From contig JAXLVN010000004.1 in the NCBI GenBank assembly GCA_046328995.1, positions 274,599 through 338,598 on the forward strand: DNA of 64,000 bases. Reading direction: 5' to 3'. The notes under the pieces were generated by a model. It was not told the origin of the DNA and made no database searches. It saw only the letters and a list, made by a program, of their open reading frames with translations. Position 1 is the stretch's first letter; every line of letters starts with the position of its first letter. Below are positions 20,436-28,744 of this stretch, in pieces. Origin of the DNA: Candidatus Kapaibacterium sp. (GTDB taxonomy: Bacteria; Bacteroidota; Ignavibacteria; Kapaibacteriales; UBA961). The position numbers were made by a program, and so were the translations under genes.

Positions 20436-21128
<693 letters not shown>

Positions 21129-21131
21129 TCC

Positions 21132-22292
21132 ATGAATACCACACGTATGGTTCTTAAAAACACCCTCCGCCACCCCTTGCGTAATATCCTTACCGTAATT
21201 GGGATAGCGATTGCAGTGTCGGCGTTTGGCCTGCTGCGAACGGTGCTTACCTCCTGGGATGCAGGTATCGAGGCCGGCTCGGTCGATCGGCTCGTTACCC
21301 GTGATGCGGTGTCGTTTATCTTTCCGCTGCCGCTGTCGTATGCTGAAAAGATTGAGCGAACCGATGGCATCGAAAAACTATGCTATATGAATTGGTTCGG
21401 CGGCGTGTATAAAGACAAGCAAAACTTCTTCCCGCGGATGGCTTGCCAACCGGAGAGAATCTTTGATGTGTATCCCGAATATATGGTCACCCCGCAGGAA
21501 CGCGAGGCATTTATCAAGGAGAGGAATGCTTGTGTCATTGGTGAGTCTATTGCCAAGCAATTCAATATCAAGCTGGGCGATATCATGACCGTTGATGGCG
21601 ATATTTACCCGGGAAAATGGGACTTCGTGGTGCGGGGAATTTATAAACGTCGGGACCAAAGCACCGACGGCACGCAGATGTTCTTTAGCTGGGTGTATAT
21701 GAATGAACGCCTCTTGCAGGAGTCACCATCCCGCGCGAATAAAATCGGGTGGGTGGTCGCAAAATTGAAGCCGAGAACAAATCCTGCCGCCGTTTCCAAG
21801 GCAATTGATAATCAATTTTTGAATTCGAGTGCGGAGACGAAGAGCGAAACAGAACGTGCCTTTAATCAAAGCTTTTTTGAGTCTTATAGTGCAATTTTTA
21901 CGGCAATTAGAATTATGTCGTTTCTCATTATCGGCATTATTCTCATGGTACTTGGCAATACGATGATTATGTCCACCCGTGAGCGCACCCGCGAATATGC
22001 GATGCTCAAGGCCCTCGGATTCCGGGGGAATCATCTCGTGGCGTTTATCGCTGGCGAGTCGGTGGTGATTGCATTCATCGGGGCGATTATCGGCGTCGGA
22101 CTGCTCTATGTGATGGTTCTCGGCGCGAGTGCTGTGGTACCGAAACAGTTCTTCCCCGTATTCTTTATCGCACCGAGCACGTATTTCATATCATTCGGTT
22201 CTGCCTTACTGCTTGGCGTGCTTGCTTCGATTCTACCGGTGATGCATAATACAAAAATACAGATCGTCGAAGGTCTGCGCTTTAATGGGTAA
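21132..22292 (+). CDS. ABC transporter permease, FtsX/MacB-like
   Basis: It has an N-terminal TM, a large periplasmic domain and a C-terminal FtsX-like 3-TM bundle. It begins 4 nt after the ATPase gene. Confidence 0.8.
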   Translation: MNTTRMVLKNTLRHPLRNILTVIGIAIAVSAFGLLRTVLTSWDAGIEAGSVDRLVTRDAVSFIFPLPLSYAEKIERTDGIEKLCYMNWFGGVYKDKQNFFPRMACQPERIFDVYPEYMVTPQEREAFIKERNACVIGESIAKQFNIKLGDIMTVDGDIYPGKWDFVVRGIYKRRDQSTDGTQMFFSWVYMNERLLQESPSRANKIGWVVAKLKPRTNPAAVSKAIDNQFLNSSAETKSETERAFNQSFFESYSAIFTAIRIMSFLIIGIILMVLGNTMIMSTRERTREYAMLKALGFRGNHLVAFIAGESVVIAFIGAIIGVGLLYVMVLGASAVVPKQFFPVFFIAPSTYFISFGSALLLGVLASILPVMHNTKIQIVEGLRFNG

Positions 22293-22319
22293 TTATCTTC
22301 CATTTACTTTACGATTAGT

Positions 22320-23486
22320 ATGAACATTCCATTCTATTATATTCTCAAAAATTTCTTCGCACGGAAATTAACGGCGTCGATTACAATTGTCGGCGTCGCG
22401 CTCGTGGTATTCGTCTTTGCCGCCGTGCTCATGATGGCGTATGGCGTTGAAAAAGCCCTCATAGCAACAGGTTCGGACGAGAATGCCATTATCACCCGCA
22501 AGGGCTCGAATAACGAAATATCAAGTATAATCGACCTGCCAACAGCCAATGAACTCTCGACATTAAAAGGAATTGCAAAGGATGCTCAGGGCAAGCCCAT
22601 CGTATCCTACGAAGTGGCTACGGTGATAAATTTAGACAAAAAGTCCGGCGGGATGAGTAATGTTTCCGTGCGCGGTGTGAGCCCGCAAGTCTTTACGCTG
22701 CGACCAAATGTGAAGATTGTACAAGGTGTGTGGTTCAAAAACGGCGCGCGGGAAATCGTCGTTGGTAAGCAGGCAAATGAACGCTTTACCGGTGCAGGTC
22801 TTGGCGATAAAGTTAAATTCGGCGGTGACTTCTGGACAATTGTCGGCGTGATGGATGCCGGTGGCAGCGCCTTCGACTCCGAAATGTGGGGCGATGTGGA
22901 GCAATTACGCGGCGCCTACAAACGCGAGGCGTATTCGAGCATGACGTTTAGATTTGAAAGTAAAGACGAGCTTGAAGTAATGAAAAGTAAGATGACAAGC
23001 GACCCGCGGCTCAATCAGATGGAAGTGGAAGTCGAGCGTAGCTTCTTCGAAAAGCAGGCAGCGGCGCTTTCTACCTTCCTTCGCATACTGGGCTTGGTGA
23101 TTACCATCATTTTCAGTGTAGGCGCGATGATCGGTGCGATGATTACGATGTACACATCGGTGGCGAACCGTACGGTCGAGATCGGTACATTGCGTGCATT
23201 GGGCTTTCATAAGTGGTCGGTACTGTTTGCCTTTTTATTTGAATCCCTTATGCTCTCATTTGTCGGCGGACTTATTGGATTAGTCCTTGCGTCCGGGCTA
23301 ACGTTCTTCTCGATTTCTACGATGAATTTCAGTTCGTTCTCGGAGCTTGCTTTCTCCTTTGCCCTTTCGCCGATGATCGTCGTCTTGTCCCTCGGATTTG
23401 CCGTGCTGATGGGGTTCGTCGGCGGAGTATTACCGTCGTTGCGCGCCTCAGGTATGAAAATTGTCGATTCGTTACGTGGAGCGTAA
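22320..23486 (+). CDS. ABC transporter permease, FtsX/MacB-like (second copy)
   Basis: It is paralogous in architecture to 21132..22292. Confidence 0.8.
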   Translation: MNIPFYYILKNFFARKLTASITIVGVALVVFVFAAVLMMAYGVEKALIATGSDENAIITRKGSNNEISSIIDLPTANELSTLKGIAKDAQGKPIVSYEVATVINLDKKSGGMSNVSVRGVSPQVFTLRPNVKIVQGVWFKNGAREIVVGKQANERFTGAGLGDKVKFGGDFWTIVGVMDAGGSAFDSEMWGDVEQLRGAYKREAYSSMTFRFESKDELEVMKSKMTSDPRLNQMEVEVERSFFEKQAAALSTFLRILGLVITIIFSVGAMIGAMITMYTSVANRTVEIGTLRALGFHKWSVLFAFLFESLMLSFVGGLIGLVLASGLTFFSISTMNFSSFSELAFSFALSPMIVVLSLGFAVLMGFVGGVLPSLRASGMKIVDSLRGA

Positions 23487-23506: not shown

Positions 23507-24811
23507 TTACTGCACGAAAATTGTCTGCTCTTTAGACTCCATTTCAAAAATCGGCACCTTCTCGACGAGTCCCGGATGACCGAGCATACGCAAAAGATAT
23601 GGCGGCAAAGCGCGAAAACGCAGGCGGATGCTCACTTGAATCACGGCTCCTTTGCGTTGTGGTATCGGAATTTGAAATCGATTCATGCGTGATTCAAAGG
23701 GCGGAATCGTTCGATTCTCCACAAAATCAGCTTCCCAGAAAAAAGGCGTTTCGTTGCCATGACGAAGCGCCTTTCCGTTATAGAGCGCCAGGGATTTGTC
23801 CTCACTGATGCGTCCGCTGCGTACTTCATCACTGTGATAGTCCATCAAATCGCCATTTTTATCCAGCAGACCGGAGGCAAAAAGCGTGTCGCCTCTCTCA
23901 TCTTTTGCGATGACTTCGAGCCACATCTGACGTTCGAAAATCGCGCCGGAGGGAATGTTGTGTCCGGTAAGAATGTTTTGGATAACGGCTTGGAGAGATA
24001 GCGTGCCGTCCTGCATGCGAACCGTCTGCGGCGCAATGATGTCCATTTGTACTGAATACGTTAGCATGGAAGCGATTTCATTGATGGTTTCTTCTCGTCC
24101 GGGGAATTCTGTCAGTGGCACATCGACACCGACCATCGTGTGATGATGGACGCGCTCACGGACCGGACCGCCGGTAGCGGCTTTCCCGGTGTAAAATTTC
24201 ATGTGACAGGTTTGGCAGGAGATGAGCCGGCCGGGGAAGGTGCTGTTTTTCCACTCGGTAAAGGTACGTTCGATCGGGAAATTATTCGGCGTATTGAAGT
24301 CATGACACGGACGGCAAACTTCGGAATTATCATCAAATTGTGCCGCATATTCCGAACGGTGATAAGCGTTTGGCAGAGGGTCAGGGATCGGACCGAGGCG
24401 TGTCGAGTCAAGGATGAATTTGAGGGAATTACTCGTTGTCGATTGATTAGGCGCAAGGCGATGACACACGTCGCAGCTGATACCATGGGCAGACATTCCG
24501 GAGAGTTTGTTCCGCTCACCCGAGTGCGCGATATTGTCAATTAACACAGATGTGGGAGAGTGGCATTCGACGCAGAACTGTCCGAGGCGTCCGGCGGAAC
24601 GTAACTGTCCAACGCTATCGAGTGCGAAGAGAACCGGATCTTTCATCGCATAGGCATGCATCGACGCCTCCCATTCACGGAAATGATCCGGATGGCAGGA
24701 GCGGCATTCTTCGGGCGCTGCAAATGCCCGGCGGAAGAGTTCGAGAGAATCTTTCCGTGAGGCGGGCGGGAGCGTAACGGTCTCGACAGTGTCGTTGCAA
24801 CTGCTTGCCAT
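23507..24811 (-). CDS. Multiheme c-type cytochrome (five CXXCH motifs) with an uncertain start
   Basis: The five motifs are CRSCH, CVECH, CDVCH, CRPCH and CQTCH. The first in-frame ATG (MASSCND, 24811) gives no signal peptide. The ORF-track entry 23507..25285 runs upstream into the SUMF1 gene and includes a signal-like hydrophobic stretch that has no ATG/GTG/TTG start within reach. Confidence 0.6.
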   Translation of the reverse strand: MASSCNDTVETVTLPPASRKDSLELFRRAFAAPEECRSCHPDHFREWEASMHAYAMKDPVLFALDSVGQLRSAGRLGQFCVECHSPTSVLIDNIAHSGERNKLSGMSAHGISCDVCHRLAPNQSTTSNSLKFILDSTRLGPIPDPLPNAYHRSEYAAQFDDNSEVCRPCHDFNTPNNFPIERTFTEWKNSTFPGRLISCQTCHMKFYTGKAATGGPVRERVHHHTMVGVDVPLTEFPGREETINEIASMLTYSVQMDIIAPQTVRMQDGTLSLQAVIQNILTGHNIPSGAIFERQMWLEVIAKDERGDTLFASGLLDKNGDLMDYHSDEVRSGRISEDKSLALYNGKALRHGNETPFFWEADFVENRTIPPFESRMNRFQIPIPQRKGAVIQVSIRLRFRALPPYLLRMLGHPGLVEKVPIFEMESKEQTIFVQ

Positions 24812-24839
24812 AAAAGCAAGTAAGCACGCAAGTAAACCC

Positions 24840-25976
24840 TTACGGCAGAGTGCGTACCACCCGAAAGCCCGTCGTGTTGCTGGGATGTTCTGGATATTGA
24901 ATACCACGATTAGATACCCGTAAATTAAAAAGTGAACTCGAAAATGCACCGCCACGCAGCAGGCGTTCAGCGCCCGAGGCAGGACCAAGCGGGTCTGTTG
25001 CCGGTGAGGTACGATAATAACTGTCGAGATAATAGTCCCAGCACCATTCGCTGACATTTCCGATGACATCATAGAGTCCGAAGGCGTTGGGTGTTTTTTG
25101 TCCTGCCGTGTGCGTCTCTTCGTTGGCATTGGCGCAGTACCATGCGAGAGGGGCGAGCACAGGATCGGCGGGTGTGCAGCCGTTATTCGACTGAAGATAA
25201 TCGCCGCCATAGCTGTCGGTGGTCGTGCCGCCGCGGGCTGCATATTCCCACTCGGCTTCGGTGGGCAGGCGGTAACCGCTTGCATTGAAATTACAGACGA
25301 CAGAGTCGTCTATCCATGAATAGCATGGGGTTAGCCCGGCGCGCACGGAAAGCCGATTGCAAAAGTCAAGAGCATCATTCCACGAAATATTCTCGACCGG
25401 CAGCGAATCACCCCGGAACCAACTCGGATTGTACCCCATTAGCATGCGCCATTCACGCTGCAGTACTTCCATTCTTCCAACGGCAATCCGCCGGGAGAGC
25501 GTGATTTGGTGCACGGGCTGTTCGTAAAAATTCTTGTCCGAACCCATCATATATTTCCCGGCGGGGAGCTCGGTCATAGCGATAACCGGATACGCAGAGC
25601 GGATATTAATATGAATAATCGACGTAGCAGCGAGGCGTCCATCGTTGGCATCATAGAGATTCACCCGCAGGAAATACCATCCATCATCAGGAAAACTGAT
25701 ACTAATCTGACGAACGGATGACCGGGGAGCAATGATCGAATCATCGAGCAGCCATTCATAGTGTGGCTGCGAGGGTGGATTGGTGGTAAATGTTGAATAA
25801 ATATAGGGTTGCCCCGGCACACCTTCCAGCGCTGATGCCGTCGCCAGTATCGAGAGCGTACTCTGCGGCAGCCGGACGGTCACCGTTTCCTGCGCGCAGC
25901 TTCCGAGCAATACGCCAAGAGCAGCGTACAGCAGAAGGATAATGGTCGTATGTAGGAACGTCAAGCGACGAAGCAT
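24840..25976 (-). CDS. SUMF1/FGE-sulfatase-domain (formylglycine-generating-enzyme family) protein with signal peptide
   Basis: A C-terminal FGE-sulfatase domain is present (RLPTEAEWEYAARGG...GLYDVIGNVSEWCWD...LRGGAF...RGIQYPEHPSNTTGFRVVR). The N-terminal signal is MLRRLTFLHTTIILLLYAALGVLLGSCAQ. Confidence 0.75.
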   Translation of the reverse strand: MLRRLTFLHTTIILLLYAALGVLLGSCAQETVTVRLPQSTLSILATASALEGVPGQPYIYSTFTTNPPSQPHYEWLLDDSIIAPRSSVRQISISFPDDGWYFLRVNLYDANDGRLAATSIIHINIRSAYPVIAMTELPAGKYMMGSDKNFYEQPVHQITLSRRIAVGRMEVLQREWRMLMGYNPSWFRGDSLPVENISWNDALDFCNRLSVRAGLTPCYSWIDDSVVCNFNASGYRLPTEAEWEYAARGGTTTDSYGGDYLQSNNGCTPADPVLAPLAWYCANANEETHTAGQKTPNAFGLYDVIGNVSEWCWDYYLDSYYRTSPATDPLGPASGAERLLRGGAFSSSLFNLRVSNRGIQYPEHPSNTTGFRVVRTLP

Positions 25977-26163: not shown

Positions 26164-26751
26164 TCAATACCACAACTGCCACTGCACCTTCGCGCTCAGC
26201 GACGTAAGTGATACCTGTCGCTCGGGGATAGCATAATAGCGGAGGTCGCCGCCGATACTGATTGACCGTGAAAGCGGATACGCATAGCCGCCGCCGAGCA
26301 TCCATCCTATTTCCCATTGGGTGCTTGCGGTGAAGTCGGCGTCATTGAGTGTGGCATTGACGCGGTAATTGTACACGCCGACGCCGGAGGTGAGCTCGAT
26401 GCCGTATTTTTCCATGCTGAATATGAGGAGGGCGGGGATGGCGTCGAGTTCGAGCGTGGTGCCCGGTGGCAGCGTCGCATCCTGCTTAACGATGAGATTC
26501 GACACCCGCAGGAGTCCGGTCTCGACACCCATGCCGAGCAAATGATCGGGACGCCAGATAAGCCGTAGCGTCCGCAGAAAGCCGAGCTGGGAATAGTCGG
26601 CTTTATCGACGTCAATCGAACGTTCGATATGGGACTGCGAGAGCCCGAGATTGGCCTGCACGATGAGGCGGTAATCACCACGGAGAGAGTCTTCCTGCGC
26701 GCTTGCAAGGCAGGGTATCAGAAGGAGAAGAGCGAGTATCAGTACTTTCAT
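26164..26751 (-). CDS. Small outer-membrane beta-barrel protein
   Basis: It has a signal peptide, alternating hydrophobic strands and a C-terminal aromatic residue (..QWQLWY). It overlaps the upstream GDPD gene by 4 nt. Confidence 0.6.
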   Translation of the reverse strand: MKVLILALLLLIPCLASAQEDSLRGDYRLIVQANLGLSQSHIERSIDVDKADYSQLGFLRTLRLIWRPDHLLGMGVETGLLRVSNLIVKQDATLPPGTTLELDAIPALLIFSMEKYGIELTSGVGVYNYRVNATLNDADFTASTQWEIGWMLGGGYAYPLSRSISIGGDLRYYAIPERQVSLTSLSAKVQWQLWY

Positions 26752-28040
26752 CGGCGGATATAATAATTATAGGCAACGACAGTAGGGTAATTTGTCAGGA
26801 TTCCATCATACTCGCCTTCATTTAAAAATTGGACGATAAATTCCGGCTGATCCAGCGTCCAGACAAATGCCCGTCGGTTCTCGGCATGCAGCCGGCTTAC
26901 CTCACTCTGCAGCGTGCCGAGTGTCCAGCGCGGAGCAAAGACTTTGGAATTCGCCTCCTGCGTCTGACGTACACTTAATTCGCAGATCGACGGCACACTT
27001 GCATGCTCCGGATGTGCGACAAATGCCTGATAAATCTCATCGGACGCCAGGCCGAAAAAAATCTCCAGACTGTCACGCTTGCCGGCAGCTTGAAGCAGCT
27101 GCGCCCGCTCAATGTATTTTTTTTGCATCGGAATAATCATTTCTACCTCGGCGGCTTCTTTGATATCGAGCCATACTGCCGTGAGCGAGGTCGAGTCCAC
27201 CACCGTTCGGAGGACGTCGTCAAGGGTCGGGATACGCTCGCCATTTTTAAGGCGACAAAGTTCCTGAAGCTGCCCGTACGTGTAATTCCCAATCGCTCCT
27301 ACCATATACTCACCATTGATGAGCCGTGTATTGAGATTTTCGTCATGATAGAGCACCGGAACGCCGTCACGGGTGAGCCGCACGTCGATTTCAACTCCAT
27401 TGGCACCAAGCTTGCCGGCGAATTTGATGAGTTCGGTCGAGTTCTCCGAAAATGGCAAACGGTCGCTATTACGCCCGCCTCCGCGGTGCGCGATGATCCA
27501 GAATTTCCCGTTAGTTTTTTCTTTTATACGCTCGTAGAGCGGTCGTACATACTGCAATACAAGAGGTTCACTCGGCAAAGCATCACTTCCGCCCACTGCG
27601 CCGCGGATAGTGAGGGTAGCAGGGCGGGTAGAACGTAGAATTTCCCGGGCTCCATCATTTTTATGTATTTCCAATGTGGAGAGTCCTGTCTGCGGTGATT
27701 GGGCATTGCGCCAGTAGCCGGCATAGAGAATCGAGGAATCTTTCATGCCGCTGCGGCATACCATGTACGTCGAATTTTTCTGACAAAAAATCGACAGTGA
27801 CTCGCGGTCATGCTTGAGAATGACCGTGTCGCCGAAGCGCGCATTCCCCTGTGATACAACATAGACACCTTCGAGTAATCTCCTCGCCTGATTGGGTATC
27901 GTACTCGTGCCTTGGAGCGTCGGCGCCAGAAGTTCGGTGTCGGGCACGATGATGCGGAGTTCACTGTTGCACGATGCTACCAAGCAGCATACCGCGACAA
28001 TACATGCATTCATACAGAGAATAATGCCGTTGATATTCAT
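26748..28040 (-). CDS. Lipoprotein with a C-terminal glycerophosphodiester phosphodiesterase (GDPD) domain
   Basis: A lipobox (LVASCNS) is present. The GDPD motif is WIIAHRGGG...ENSTELIKFAGKLGANGVEIDVRLTRDGVPVLYHD. The N-terminal region is ~190 aa. Confidence 0.7.
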   Translation of the reverse strand: MNINGIILCMNACIVAVCCLVASCNSELRIIVPDTELLAPTLQGTSTIPNQARRLLEGVYVVSQGNARFGDTVILKHDRESLSIFCQKNSTYMVCRSGMKDSSILYAGYWRNAQSPQTGLSTLEIHKNDGAREILRSTRPATLTIRGAVGGSDALPSEPLVLQYVRPLYERIKEKTNGKFWIIAHRGGGRNSDRLPFSENSTELIKFAGKLGANGVEIDVRLTRDGVPVLYHDENLNTRLINGEYMVGAIGNYTYGQLQELCRLKNGERIPTLDDVLRTVVDSTSLTAVWLDIKEAAEVEMIIPMQKKYIERAQLLQAAGKRDSLEIFFGLASDEIYQAFVAHPEHASVPSICELSVRQTQEANSKVFAPRWTLGTLQSEVSRLHAENRRAFVWTLDQPEFIVQFLNEGEYDGILTNYPTVVAYNYYIRR

Positions 28041-28744
28041 AAGATCACTCCAATTGAAAATTCGGGATAAATCAGGCGGTCATTGAACGTTGAAAATGCG
28101 AGCCAGGATTGGTAAGCGTTGCTGAGGTTGTTGATTTTAAGACCAAGAAGAATATGGGTTTTGCGGAAGAAGGGCTGTTCGGTATAGACCCCAATCGACC
28201 CTCCTGCGAAGGTGTTTTTTTCGCTCAGTACTTCAATATCGCCCACCCGTGTGCTGCGTGCGGTGATATAAAGTACTTCACCGCGAACGGTGATGAACAC
28301 TTCATCAAACGCGAAGCCGAGGGAGACATGCGGGGTATTGAGCCAGCCGATAGCTGACACATCGAAGCTATTGTCCATAGTGGCAAAGCCGTACCAGAGA
28401 GTGCTGTAGTCACCGACGGAGAGCGCAAGGCGTCCGTAGCTGATATTCCACGATGCGCCAATGGAGGCAAGATTGGTGATGTAATTACTCCCGAGGCGTC
28501 CGGTAAGCGCAAAATTCAGCGGTAAATTATACCGGAAATTCCCGTCGAGCATAGGGATTTGCCGGATTTCTTCTTCGGCTATCGGGCGTGGGACGAAGGT
28601 CGTCGTCGCGCCGATGCAGCCGGAGAAGGTATAGGCATCTGCTTCGCGGGGGAAGAGAACGTAAGCGCCTGTAGAGTCAGCTTGCTGAGCTAATGCGAGG
28701 GAGGGGAGGAGGAGGCACAGAACACCAAGGAGCAGAGTTTTCAT
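28037..28744 (-). CDS. Outer-membrane beta-barrel protein
   Basis: It has a signal peptide (MKTLLLGVLCLLLPSLALAQ) and a beta-strand pattern. Its stop overlaps the GDPD start by 4 nt. Confidence 0.55.
   Translation of the reverse strand: MKTLLLGVLCLLLPSLALAQQADSTGAYVLFPREADAYTFSGCIGATTTFVPRPIAEEEIRQIPMLDGNFRYNLPLNFALTGRLGSNYITNLASIGASWNISYGRLALSVGDYSTLWYGFATMDNSFDVSAIGWLNTPHVSLGFAFDEVFITVRGEVLYITARSTRVGDIEVLSEKNTFAGGSIGVYTEQPFFRKTHILLGLKINNLSNAYQSWLAFSTFNDRLIYPEFSIGVIL

Follow-up and report, generated by a model that had tools for sequence, protein, structure and literature searches.

The pentahaem cytochrome c gene described here most likely lacks neither a start codon nor an export signal. 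Judged from sequence comparison, its start is probably a GTG codon 68 bases inside the upstream gene, which encodes a protein with a formylglycine-generating-enzyme (FGE) type domain. The case is a start-annotation problem in a conserved gene pair. A GTG-started, exported and lipidated cytochrome forming a module with the FGE-like gene is the joint explanation that we consider probable, and the functional part of it is held with low confidence.

Layout of the gene pair

Both genes lie on the minus strand of the 64-kb stretch of DNA that was analysed (the window), among genes for GDPD, OMP beta-barrel and MacB/FtsX proteins. The upstream gene (24840..25976, TAA stop at 24842..24840) encodes a lipoprotein of 378 aa by its open reading frame and Pfam match. 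The original prediction of a SUMF1/FGE-domain gene with a signal peptide agreed with this result, as the product had a lipoprotein-type leader and a Pfam FGE-sulfatase match with an E value of 1e-40. The downstream gene, re-annotated from the GTG, encodes a pentahaem lipoprotein cytochrome c of 466 aa plus stop (23507..24907). The next in-frame ATG of the cytochrome frame (24811..24809) lies 28 nt past the FGE stop, and it was taken as the start both by the original prediction and by gene callers (as in P0001). From this ATG the frame runs from 24811 to 23507 and gives 434 aa beginning "MASSC..." with five CXXCH motifs, as had been described. This shorter product has no signal peptide, so the earlier view that it is not exportable was borne out.

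With the GTG start, the two genes overlap on the same strand by 68 nt (24840..24907). The overlap is then read in two frames, as the last FGE codons (...NRGIQYPEHPSNTTGFRVVRTLP and stop) also encode the n-region of the cytochrome leader (MVFNIQNIPATRRAFGWYALCR). Scans for promoter-like (6 against 3.1 ± 1.9 expected) and terminator-like (2 against 2.8 expected) sequences gave values close to background.

Proposed start codon and predicted lipoprotein leader

The proposed GTG (24907..24905, minus strand) is in frame, 32 codons upstream of the ATG at 24811 and 21 codons before the codon where the FGE stop begins. No stop occurs in the cytochrome frame between the GTG and the lipobox Cys, and the GTG is the sole canonical start upstream of the signal peptide that is common to the relatives that lack the ATG. 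Translation from the GTG gives MVFNIQNIPATRRAFGWYALCRKGLLACLLAFMASS followed by C, a predicted 36-residue lipoprotein signal peptide (24800..24907, minus strand). It showed a positive n-region (RR...CRK) that extends up to CRK, the h-region GLLACLLAFMA and the lipobox A-S-S-C; cleavage before the Cys and its lipidation are predicted from these features. The Cys37 codon (24797..24799, minus strand) was invariant in alignment A2, the Cys was present in 111 of 121 family sequences, and a lipoprotein leader was found in every full-length orthologue of the family alignment. The acidic residues that follow the Cys (C-N-D-T-V-E) are a hint that the protein may be exposed on the cell surface.

The in-frame text upstream of the ATG, quoted in the original prediction as ...TRRAFGWYALCRKGLLACLLAF-MASSC, matches the sequence. 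The lipoprotein-type signal noticed there is real, and its Cys is the conserved lipobox Cys of the family. The accompanying statement that no usable start codon exists was true only of the 21 codons quoted, as the GTG sits eleven codons further upstream.

The GTG was invariant in alignment A1 and conserved in every lineage, even in those with a downstream ATG. In the FGE frame it coincides with a conserved Arg codon (CGT G), and its conservation is therefore not proof of a start. Several points stand against the GTG. At 23 residues the resulting n-region is long, bacterial genes do not usually overlap by as much as 68 nt, and starting at a TTG present in L003 and L094 or at a GTG present in L004 would leave a very short leader (10-11 residues). 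Among distant family members, short called leaders (7-12 residues) were common. The absence of a Shine-Dalgarno motif at the GTG is uninformative, because only 11 of the 41 long open reading frames of the window have such a motif.

An unlikely alternative is that translation begins between the GTG and the h-region, at some near-cognate codon. The candidates are two ATC codons (-28 and -25, counted from the ATG) and the codon that corresponds to the ATG of L001. One aligned position carries ATG in L001, ATA in L003 and L094, and ACA in the window, L004 and L008, which suggests an ancestral start there, and table 11 admits ATA as a rare start. ACA, however, is not near-cognate, and ATC is a very poor initiator in bacteria. 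Moreover, the canonical GTG is present 7 codons upstream of the first ATC, and the strong purifying selection described below implies efficient expression. We infer that translation starts at the GTG and not at a non-canonical codon.

The leader also contains T-R-R-A-F, and export by the Tat pathway was considered for this motif. It was rejected as a coincidence, because the RR derives from the overlapping FGE codons for TTGFR, and because haem c attachment requires unfolded Sec export.

The junction in relatives and selection on the cytochrome

The junction without the ATG was also observed in L003, L004-L007, L008 and L094. Within the window's clade, at least six assemblies made independently from different samples share this state, and one of the contigs (L003) is of long-read style. 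The codon at ATG 24811 was itself not conserved, being ACA in L003 and TCA in L094. In the window and in L008, the GTG was the only canonical upstream start.

The alignment of orthologues that had been suggested for locating starts and leaders was carried out. It placed the ATGs of sister lineages within the same overlap, 11 (L001), 9 (L092) and 17 (L010/L093) codons before the FGE stop, and all of them downstream of the conserved GTG, which the original prediction had overlooked. These ATGs begin leaders homologous to that of the window, with the leader Cys conserved, a length of 27-35 residues compared with 36 in the window, and an overlap of 38-53 nt. Between the FGE stop and the Cys, lineage-specific indels of 3 and 9 nt were present, and these keep the frame.

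The cytochrome gene showed dN/dS values of 0.05-0.13 overall, which indicates strong purifying selection. The value was 0.10 at a dS of 0.19, despite the window and L008 having only the GTG upstream, and 0.05 for the window against L003 at a dS above 2.

An indel or sequencing error had been proposed for this junction. A lost base or a mutated ATG, whether an assembly or sequencing error or the mark of a pseudogene, would account for a first ATG that gives a product without signal and for the truncated products of gene callers. We consider this highly improbable. The identical junction in the independent assemblies listed above argues against an assembly error, the strong purifying selection argues against a pseudogene, the cytochrome retains its five CXXCH motifs together with 44 invariant columns, and the FGE domain is intact up to the end of its profile.

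Where the FGE gene ends, the cytochrome frame remains open, and its offset is phase 2 throughout the long-overlap subclade. Both observations would suit a -1 shift near the FGE end, which would yield an FGE-cytochrome fusion exported by the FGE leader. Against such a shift, no slippery heptamer of the X XXY YYZ type occurs in the last 21 FGE codons, no FGE-cytochrome fusion was found among 120 cytochrome or 120 FGE homologues, and the RNA structure was not significant (z = 0.61). In other subclades the phase is 0 or 1 and an ordinary ATG lies at the stop, and a lipobox and h-region would be purposeless inside a fused protein. A fusion is therefore barely credible. The open stretch of the cytochrome frame over the FGE gene, 166 codons in the window, was also considered as a longer overlapping gene or fusion; it was attributed to chance, as the same stretch was 58, 54 and 20 codons in relatives.

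With the GTG as start, the truncation by gene callers extends to the relatives. The called products had 434 aa in P0001, 441 aa in P0002 and 412 aa in P0005, and L093 and L094 were also truncated. In this way gene callers remove the export signal of the cytochrome in at least six lineages, and a survey that selects exported multihaem cytochromes by their signal peptides would miss the protein.

Conservation of the pairing

FGE-cytochrome adjacency was observed in about 18 loci of Kapabacteria/Ignavibacteria/Chlorobiota type with differing flanks. In 13 species-level cytochrome loci, and also in L088 and L091-L094, the gene immediately upstream on the same strand was the FGE gene. The spacing of the pair varied between the 68-nt overlap and a few nt, mostly with overlapping or abutting genes. 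About 65 of the 80 cytochrome loci had no FGE gene within 6 kb. In the rest of the cytochrome family, a beta-propeller lipoprotein takes the FGE position, and in other phyla an FG-GAP/T9SS protein is also found there. In addition, two of the four orthologues with PKD and FGE domains that were checked had no adjoining cytochrome. The proposed pairing of SUMF1-domain genes with multihaem cytochromes thus held within one clade and did not extend to the family as a whole. A literature search did not find a pairing of FGE/SUMF1 proteins with multihaem cytochromes.

The junction resembles other long same-strand overlaps with translational coupling, in which the downstream start lies inside the upstream gene. 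Related lineages have the common kinds of junction, of the 4-nt ATGA type or abutting. Usual overlaps are 1-8 nt, compared with 68 nt here and 38-53 nt in the sisters. With such an overlap, the bases for the n-region of the signal peptide also encode GFRVVR, a conserved motif in the FGE domain. The locus shows a long, conserved, dual-coding overlap.

Identity of the FGE-like protein

The product of the upstream gene starts with MLRRLTFLHTTIILLLYAALGVLLGSC, and its lipoprotein-type leader ends in LLGS before the Cys. A PKD-like N-terminal domain occupies about residues 35-125, and orthologues matched PF00801/PF18911 PKD. The FGE-type domain (residues 133-375; 24852..25580, minus strand) matched Pfam FGE-sulfatase (PF03781) over profile positions 4-255 of 255, consistent with the FGE-sulfatase fold.

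The catalytic copper-binding Cys pair of FGE (C-x4-C before RYR/GFR) was absent in the alignment to 6muj, where 'lchdsycnryrv' is opposite 'ssslfnlrv' of the FGE-like protein, and the orthologue alignment has no Cys at that place. Pfam did not find an EgtB-type N-terminal (DinB-type iron-binding) domain, the N-terminus being PKD-like. The EgtB/OvoA equivalog matched only residues 233-373 with 39 bits, compared with a cut-off of 360. The best NCBIfam match was PorK/GldK (93 bits, cut-off 350), and porL, porM and porN of a T9SS context were not among the neighbours of the gene. All NCBIfam matches of the protein were far below their cut-offs.

The best solved relative was Treponema denticola TvpA (2y3c; E 5e-41), a ligand-binding DGR variable protein. 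TvpA, PorK/GldK and the FGE-like protein are all lipoproteins with an FGE-type fold and without the FGE catalytic cysteines, whereas only the FGE-like group has the PKD-like N-domain and is paired with a cytochrome. The region that matches the FGE active site and the TvpA variable region differed among orthologue subclades. The TvpA match prompted a search for a DGR target, in which positions 24830-25060 were compared with the 64-kb window (blastn, word size 7). Only the query itself was returned, and with no template repeat within the window this candidate was rejected.

These results do not agree with the description of the protein as a copper/iron-dependent SUMF1 enzyme, given the missing Cys pair, the lack of an EgtB-type N-terminal domain and TvpA as best solved relative. 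The original prediction suggested an uncharacterised extracytoplasmic redox system. In a catalytic form of this reading, the FGE-like protein would be a real extracytoplasmic oxidoreductase, PvdO- or NirV-like, exchanging electrons with the cytochrome, and the pair would be a new catalytic redox system. The conserved adjacency, with its presumed translational coupling, favours this reading, as does a match (E 1.5e-20) to PvdO, a periplasmic FGE-fold protein with the NCBIfam name dihydropyoverdine dehydrogenase. The sub-threshold NCBIfam scores, the absent Cys pair and the variable active-site-equivalent region speak against it. The proteins in the partner slot of other phyla are of binding or scaffold types, and PKD-FGE orthologues exist without a cytochrome. 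We therefore regard this enzyme role as doubtful. A non-catalytic binding or scaffold partner is the most likely role of the FGE-like protein, with low confidence, and is suggested by the missing catalytic residues together with the similarity to TvpA and PorK.

Proposed module

In the explanation that we favour, the cytochrome would be translated from GTG 24907..24905, overlapping the FGE-like gene by 68 nt, to give a 466-aa pre-lipoprotein, and its translation may be coupled to that of the FGE-like gene. The 36-residue leader would direct Sec export, after which cleavage at Cys37 would leave this residue lipidated, and the five haems would be attached outside the cytoplasm. Like c552 of Thermochromatium tepidum and MccSep, the mature cytochrome would consist of a helical cap with five haems and a stem of Ig-like fold. 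Its partner would be a lipoprotein with a PKD domain and an FGE-type C-lectin fold without catalytic cysteines, and in Kapabacteria/Ignavibacteria-type bacteria the two genes would constitute a module that is conserved and co-translated. The cytochrome is probably an envelope or cell-surface redox protein, an assignment of low confidence. At present the work stands as an annotation correction plus a lead.

Comparison of the cytochrome with known systems

The alpha-helical haem-binding domain (24059..24730, minus strand) has the five motifs CRSCH, CVECH, CDVCH, CRPCH and CQTCH (C68-H72, C112-H116, C145-H149, C198-H202 and C231-H235 in the 466-aa numbering), all invariant in alignment A2. It is followed by a C-terminal Ig-like beta-sandwich domain with a conserved GHNIPSG loop (23510..24058, minus strand), as seen in the model and the profile alignment. 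The AlphaFold2 model had a mean pLDDT of 86 and was helical to about residue 283.

T. tepidum c552 (PDB 5ze8) is built likewise, its helical N-terminal domain containing five CXXCH motifs and its C-terminal part being a beta-sandwich. Foldseek aligned the model with 5ze8 over the whole chain (E 4e-19, TM 0.58/0.68, 456 aligned columns), and hmmsearch with the cytochrome profile gave E 1.6e-22 in three stretches covering both domains. The cytochrome thus has both features of the c552 type, the five-CXXCH helical domain and the whole-chain similarity to 5ze8. The loop (G/P)H-x-(I/M)P-(S/T)G is common to both proteins. Their identity is only 19%, the window family is predicted to be lipid-anchored, and a Cys in the 5ze8 alignment stands where the window family has an invariant Glu (E213). 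A citing preprint describes c552 as a protein of unknown function.

MccSep / ExtKL (GSU2937-2936; PDB 9wt8/9wt9), a multihaem selenoprotein polysulfide reductase of Geobacter, is alike in its cap-and-stem form, with a five-haem helical cap and an Ig-like stem, in its profile match (E 2e-9) and in the conserved GH(S/N)IP-x-G loop. The NCBIfam MccSep model NF040886 gave E 5e-12 and 45 bits, far from the equivalog cut-off of 250. GHSIPDG-U-P of MccSep aligned to GHNIPSG-A-I of the window cytochrome, so that the catalytic U325 (D-G-U-P loop) faces Ala322, a position with A, T, S or V across the window family. The haem-2 ligand C239 faces V212/E213 (QCC against (K)VE, an alignment uncertain by about one residue), and with E213 invariant the window family has no Cys there. 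MccSep also differs in being a soluble periplasmic tetramer, compared with the predicted lipoprotein here, and it occurs mainly in Desulfobacterota and Nitrospirota.

A more specific proposal is put forward here tentatively, and we consider it speculative. The PKD-FGE-like lipoprotein and the lipid-anchored pentahaem cytochrome could be an undescribed two-protein redox module of the envelope, possibly of the surface, in Kapabacteria/Ignavibacteria. The FGE-type lectin fold would serve to bind a substrate or a surface. Catalysis or electron transfer would take place in the cytochrome, at a haem with surroundings unlike those in MccSep (invariant Glu213 in place of the Cys ligand and Ala in place of Sec), and the unusually long dual-coding overlap would lock the expression of the two proteins together. 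The conserved FGE-like lipoprotein/pentahaem cytochrome pair has no characterised member, and the studied structural relatives of the cytochrome are only c552 and the polysulfide-reducing selenoenzyme. If the pair is indeed a redox enzyme system, it would represent a new branch of that cytochrome family.

Overlapping lipoprotein genes

The minus strand of the window carried two predicted lipoprotein genes, the second of which would start inside the first. The upstream gene (24840..25976) encodes a 378-aa FGE-like protein with a lipoprotein-type leader (MLRRLTFLHTTIILLLYAALGVLLGS, then Cys) and a full-length FGE-sulfatase domain (Pfam) at residues 133–375 (E 1e-40); its TAA stop lies at 24842..24840. 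The first downstream ATG (24811..24809, minus strand) lies in a different frame and opens a 434-aa ORF ending at 23507, with five CXXCH motifs and weak Pfam matches to multihaem families (Cytochrome_C554 at 1e-6, and others). Its product (MASSCNDTVE...) lacks a signal peptide. The original prediction had described the pair accurately, and the in-frame text upstream of the ATG (...TRRAFGWYALCRKGLLACLLAF) reads as quoted there.

Homologues of the cytochrome numbered 160 in the protein collection and were mostly of 435–460 aa. Across 27 aligned, diverse family members the 'MASSC' Cys was invariant, and in every full-length sequence it followed a hydrophobic leader, so the family consists of lipoproteins. 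This lipobox Cys was present in 111 of 121 family sequences; eight of the ten exceptions were N-terminally truncated gene calls, and two had Ala there. Because c-type cytochromes require export, the window gene must start upstream of the hydrophobic core.

Start codon of the cytochrome gene

The claim that there was no usable start codon overlooked an in-frame GTG at 24907..24905 (minus strand), which precedes the ATG by 32 codons without an intervening stop. From this GTG the leader would be MVFNIQNIPATRRAFGWYALCRK-GLLACLLAFMA-SS before the lipobox Cys, 36 residues long, compared with 27–35 residues in ATG-initiated sister lineages and with other leaders of 34–38 residues in the family.

Among related loci in other assemblies (L numbers), L001 (protein P0003, 66% identical to the window) has an ATG (MLWAFGWCVHCRS...) 38 nt inside the FGE gene, and the sister lineages L010/L093 and L092 have one 17 and 9 codons before the FGE stop, respectively. 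Gene callers ignored these ATGs in L092 and L093, calling products of 412 and 403 aa. More distant FGE-linked orthologues start with ATG or GTG at the FGE stop or at most about two codons from it, 4-nt overlaps included. The ATG-initiated leader looked for in orthologues was found in sister lineages but not in the window's own clade, where no ATG precedes the hydrophobic core. To this clade belong the window, L008 (96% identical), L004–7 (95–96%), L003 (84%) and L094, for which the 79% identity is that of its FGE partner P0122 and not a cytochrome figure. At the aligned position of the L001 ATG, L003 and L094 have ATA, and the window, L004 and L008 have ACA; the ATG at 24811 is not conserved either (ACA in L003, TCA in L094).

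In the nucleotide alignment of FGE–cytochrome junctions, the GTG was invariant and was the sole canonical start common to all window-clade sequences. Lineages differed by 3 and 9 nt between the FGE stop and the Cys, so the frame is kept. In the FGE frame, a conserved codon for Arg (CGT G) underlies the GTG, which is also conserved in lineages with a later ATG, and its conservation is therefore not readable as selection for a start. Shine–Dalgarno motifs were rare in the genome (11 of 41 long ORFs), and so uninformative for the GTG. Near the hydrophobic core, L003 and L094 have a TTG and L004 a GTG, which would give leaders of 10–11 residues that lack a charged n-region; in distant family members, short leaders are often called.

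It is very likely that translation begins somewhere upstream and yields a lipoprotein leader, and the GTG at 24907..24905 is probably the start, with near-cognate initiation a possible alternative. The missing start and signal are thus explained by a start that was mis-called, in a gene with a long overlap on the same strand. Initiation at the GTG would be coupled to translation of the upstream FGE gene, and the product would be exported by Sec, cleaved by signal peptidase II and lipidated, with haem attached outside the cytoplasm. The lipobox Cys is followed by acidic residues (C-N/S/K-D/E-...) that resemble Bacteroidota lipoprotein export signals, a weak hint by analogy that the cytochrome may be surface-exposed.

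The callers of the collection and of NCBI truncated the cytochrome N-terminally in several lineages (proteins P0001, P0002 and P0005; L092:1604-1703, L093:3626-3752 and L094:3638-3668), even in L092 and L093, where the upstream gene contains a good ATG; a penalty on long overlaps is the probable reason. At the FGE C-terminus (R-T-L-P, window 24852-24842), R(T/S)LP* was kept only in the long-overlap subclade, and tails in other subclades were variable. In the other frame this tail reads C-R-K/S/N and so forms the charged end of the n-region in the cytochrome leader. A dual-coding constraint could explain its conservation, as could close kinship alone.

Integrity of the reading frame

The ATG-less junction recurred in assemblies from different samples and projects, which argues against the assembly or sequencing error originally proposed. 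A pseudogene was ruled out by the low dN/dS of the cytochrome against L008 (0.10, dS 0.19), L004 (0.13) and L003 (0.05, dS above 2). In the window and L008 the GTG is the only canonical upstream start, and despite this the gene has been under strong constraint since they diverged. Frameshifting into an FGE–cytochrome fusion found no support: there was no slippery heptamer, RNA structure was not significant (z = 0.61), no fused homologues were found among the cytochrome and FGE homologues, and the long open stretch of the cytochrome frame across the FGE gene was not conserved in relatives.

Conservation of the gene pair

A tblastn search with the FGE-like protein, covering 80 species-level genome loci that carry the cytochrome, placed the FGE gene directly upstream on the same strand in 13. 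These were MAGs with the labels Kapabacteria, Ignavibacteria, Chlorobiota or Bacteroidota, except for three whose label was just 'bacterium' (L011, Bacterium HR21) or Chloroflexota (L012). Other look-ups added five such loci, and flanking genes varied among all of these. The other ~65 loci, from Calditrichota, KSB1, Myxococcota, Marinimicrobia, Zixibacteria and others, had no FGE gene within 6 kb. Instead, 27 of these carried a ~480-aa beta-propeller lipoprotein (Pfam Lactonase, 7-bladed beta-propeller), usually just upstream, and 28 a ~700-aa FG-GAP protein, usually just downstream of the cytochrome; a scanned FG-GAP representative matched a T9SS sorting tail at E 6e-5, below Pfam's cut-off. 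These neighbours are an alternative conserved module outside the FGE-linked clade. Such flanks were seen at L013, L019-L023, L026, L028, L031, L038, L040, L051, L063, L067, L068, L072, L080, L085 and L087.

In the reverse check, the cytochrome lay downstream in two of four PKD-FGE orthologues; the other two adjoined DUF1800, DUF1501 and GFO_IDH_MocA genes. L089:634-6543 and L090:508-6521 show the conserved row OmpA, DUF1800, DUF1501 (sulfatase-like), PKD-FGE and GFO_IDH_MocA oxidoreductase, without the cytochrome. The co-occurrence of the FGE-like gene with the cytochrome is thus conserved within one clade and absent from most cytochrome loci; this split and the reverse result indicate a clade-specific, translationally coupled module and not an obligate partnership. 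The remaining interest is moderate and lies in the unusual 68-nt dual-coding overlap and in this conserved, uncharacterised pair of FGE-like lipoprotein and pentahaem cytochrome.

In the window, three operon-like genes with 4-nt overlaps (26164-28744, minus strand) lie 187 nt upstream of the FGE gene. They encode a 235-aa protein that matched no family, a lipoprotein of 430 aa with a GDPD domain, and a 195-aa protein resembling OMP beta-barrels. L003, L004 and L094 share this block in synteny, and L001, L092 and L093 lack it. A MacB/LolCDE-like ABC transporter set (20436-23486, plus strand; one ATPase, two MacB_PCD/FtsX permeases) converges on the cytochrome 3' end with a 20-nt gap and is syntenic in L003, L004, L008 and L094.

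Comparison with known proteins

The closest solved relative of the FGE-like protein was TvpA, a DGR variable protein (E 5e-41); the 64-kb window contained no DGR template repeat. FGEs followed at 6e-20, then PorK and PvdO. Both FGE catalytic cysteines were absent in the alignment to 6muj and in that of orthologues, in which a PKD domain lies N-terminal to the FGE domain. We infer that the protein is a binding or scaffold partner and not an enzyme, a role that fits the binding-type partners (beta-propeller, FG-GAP/T9SS) in other phyla.

In the AlphaFold2 model of the cytochrome (mean pLDDT 86, pTM 0.82), a helical haem domain precedes a beta-sandwich. The only PDB entry that Foldseek matched over the whole chain was T. 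tepidum penta-haem c552 (5ze8; E 4e-19, TM 0.58/0.68), and the family profile matched 5ze8 at 1.6e-22 and MccSep at 2e-9; the cytochrome has the c552/MccSep fold. A citing preprint terms this c552 a protein of unknown function. The nearest NCBIfam model was ExtKL/MccSep (45 bits against a cut-off of 250). MccSep is a polysulfide reductase with a five-haem cap and an Ig-like stem, whose activity requires U325 and the haem-2 ligand C239 (bioRxiv 10.1101/2025.11.18.688581). These residues align with Ala322 and V212/E213 of the window cytochrome, so the family is not MccSep; judged from the alignments, the pair lacks the catalytic residues of both FGE and MccSep. E213 of the 466-aa product (about 24269-24271) is an invariant Glu where, in an alignment uncertain by ~1 residue, T. 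tepidum c552 has Cys and MccSep the C239/C240 pair; this replacement suggests that the haem-2 environment differs in the window cytochrome family.
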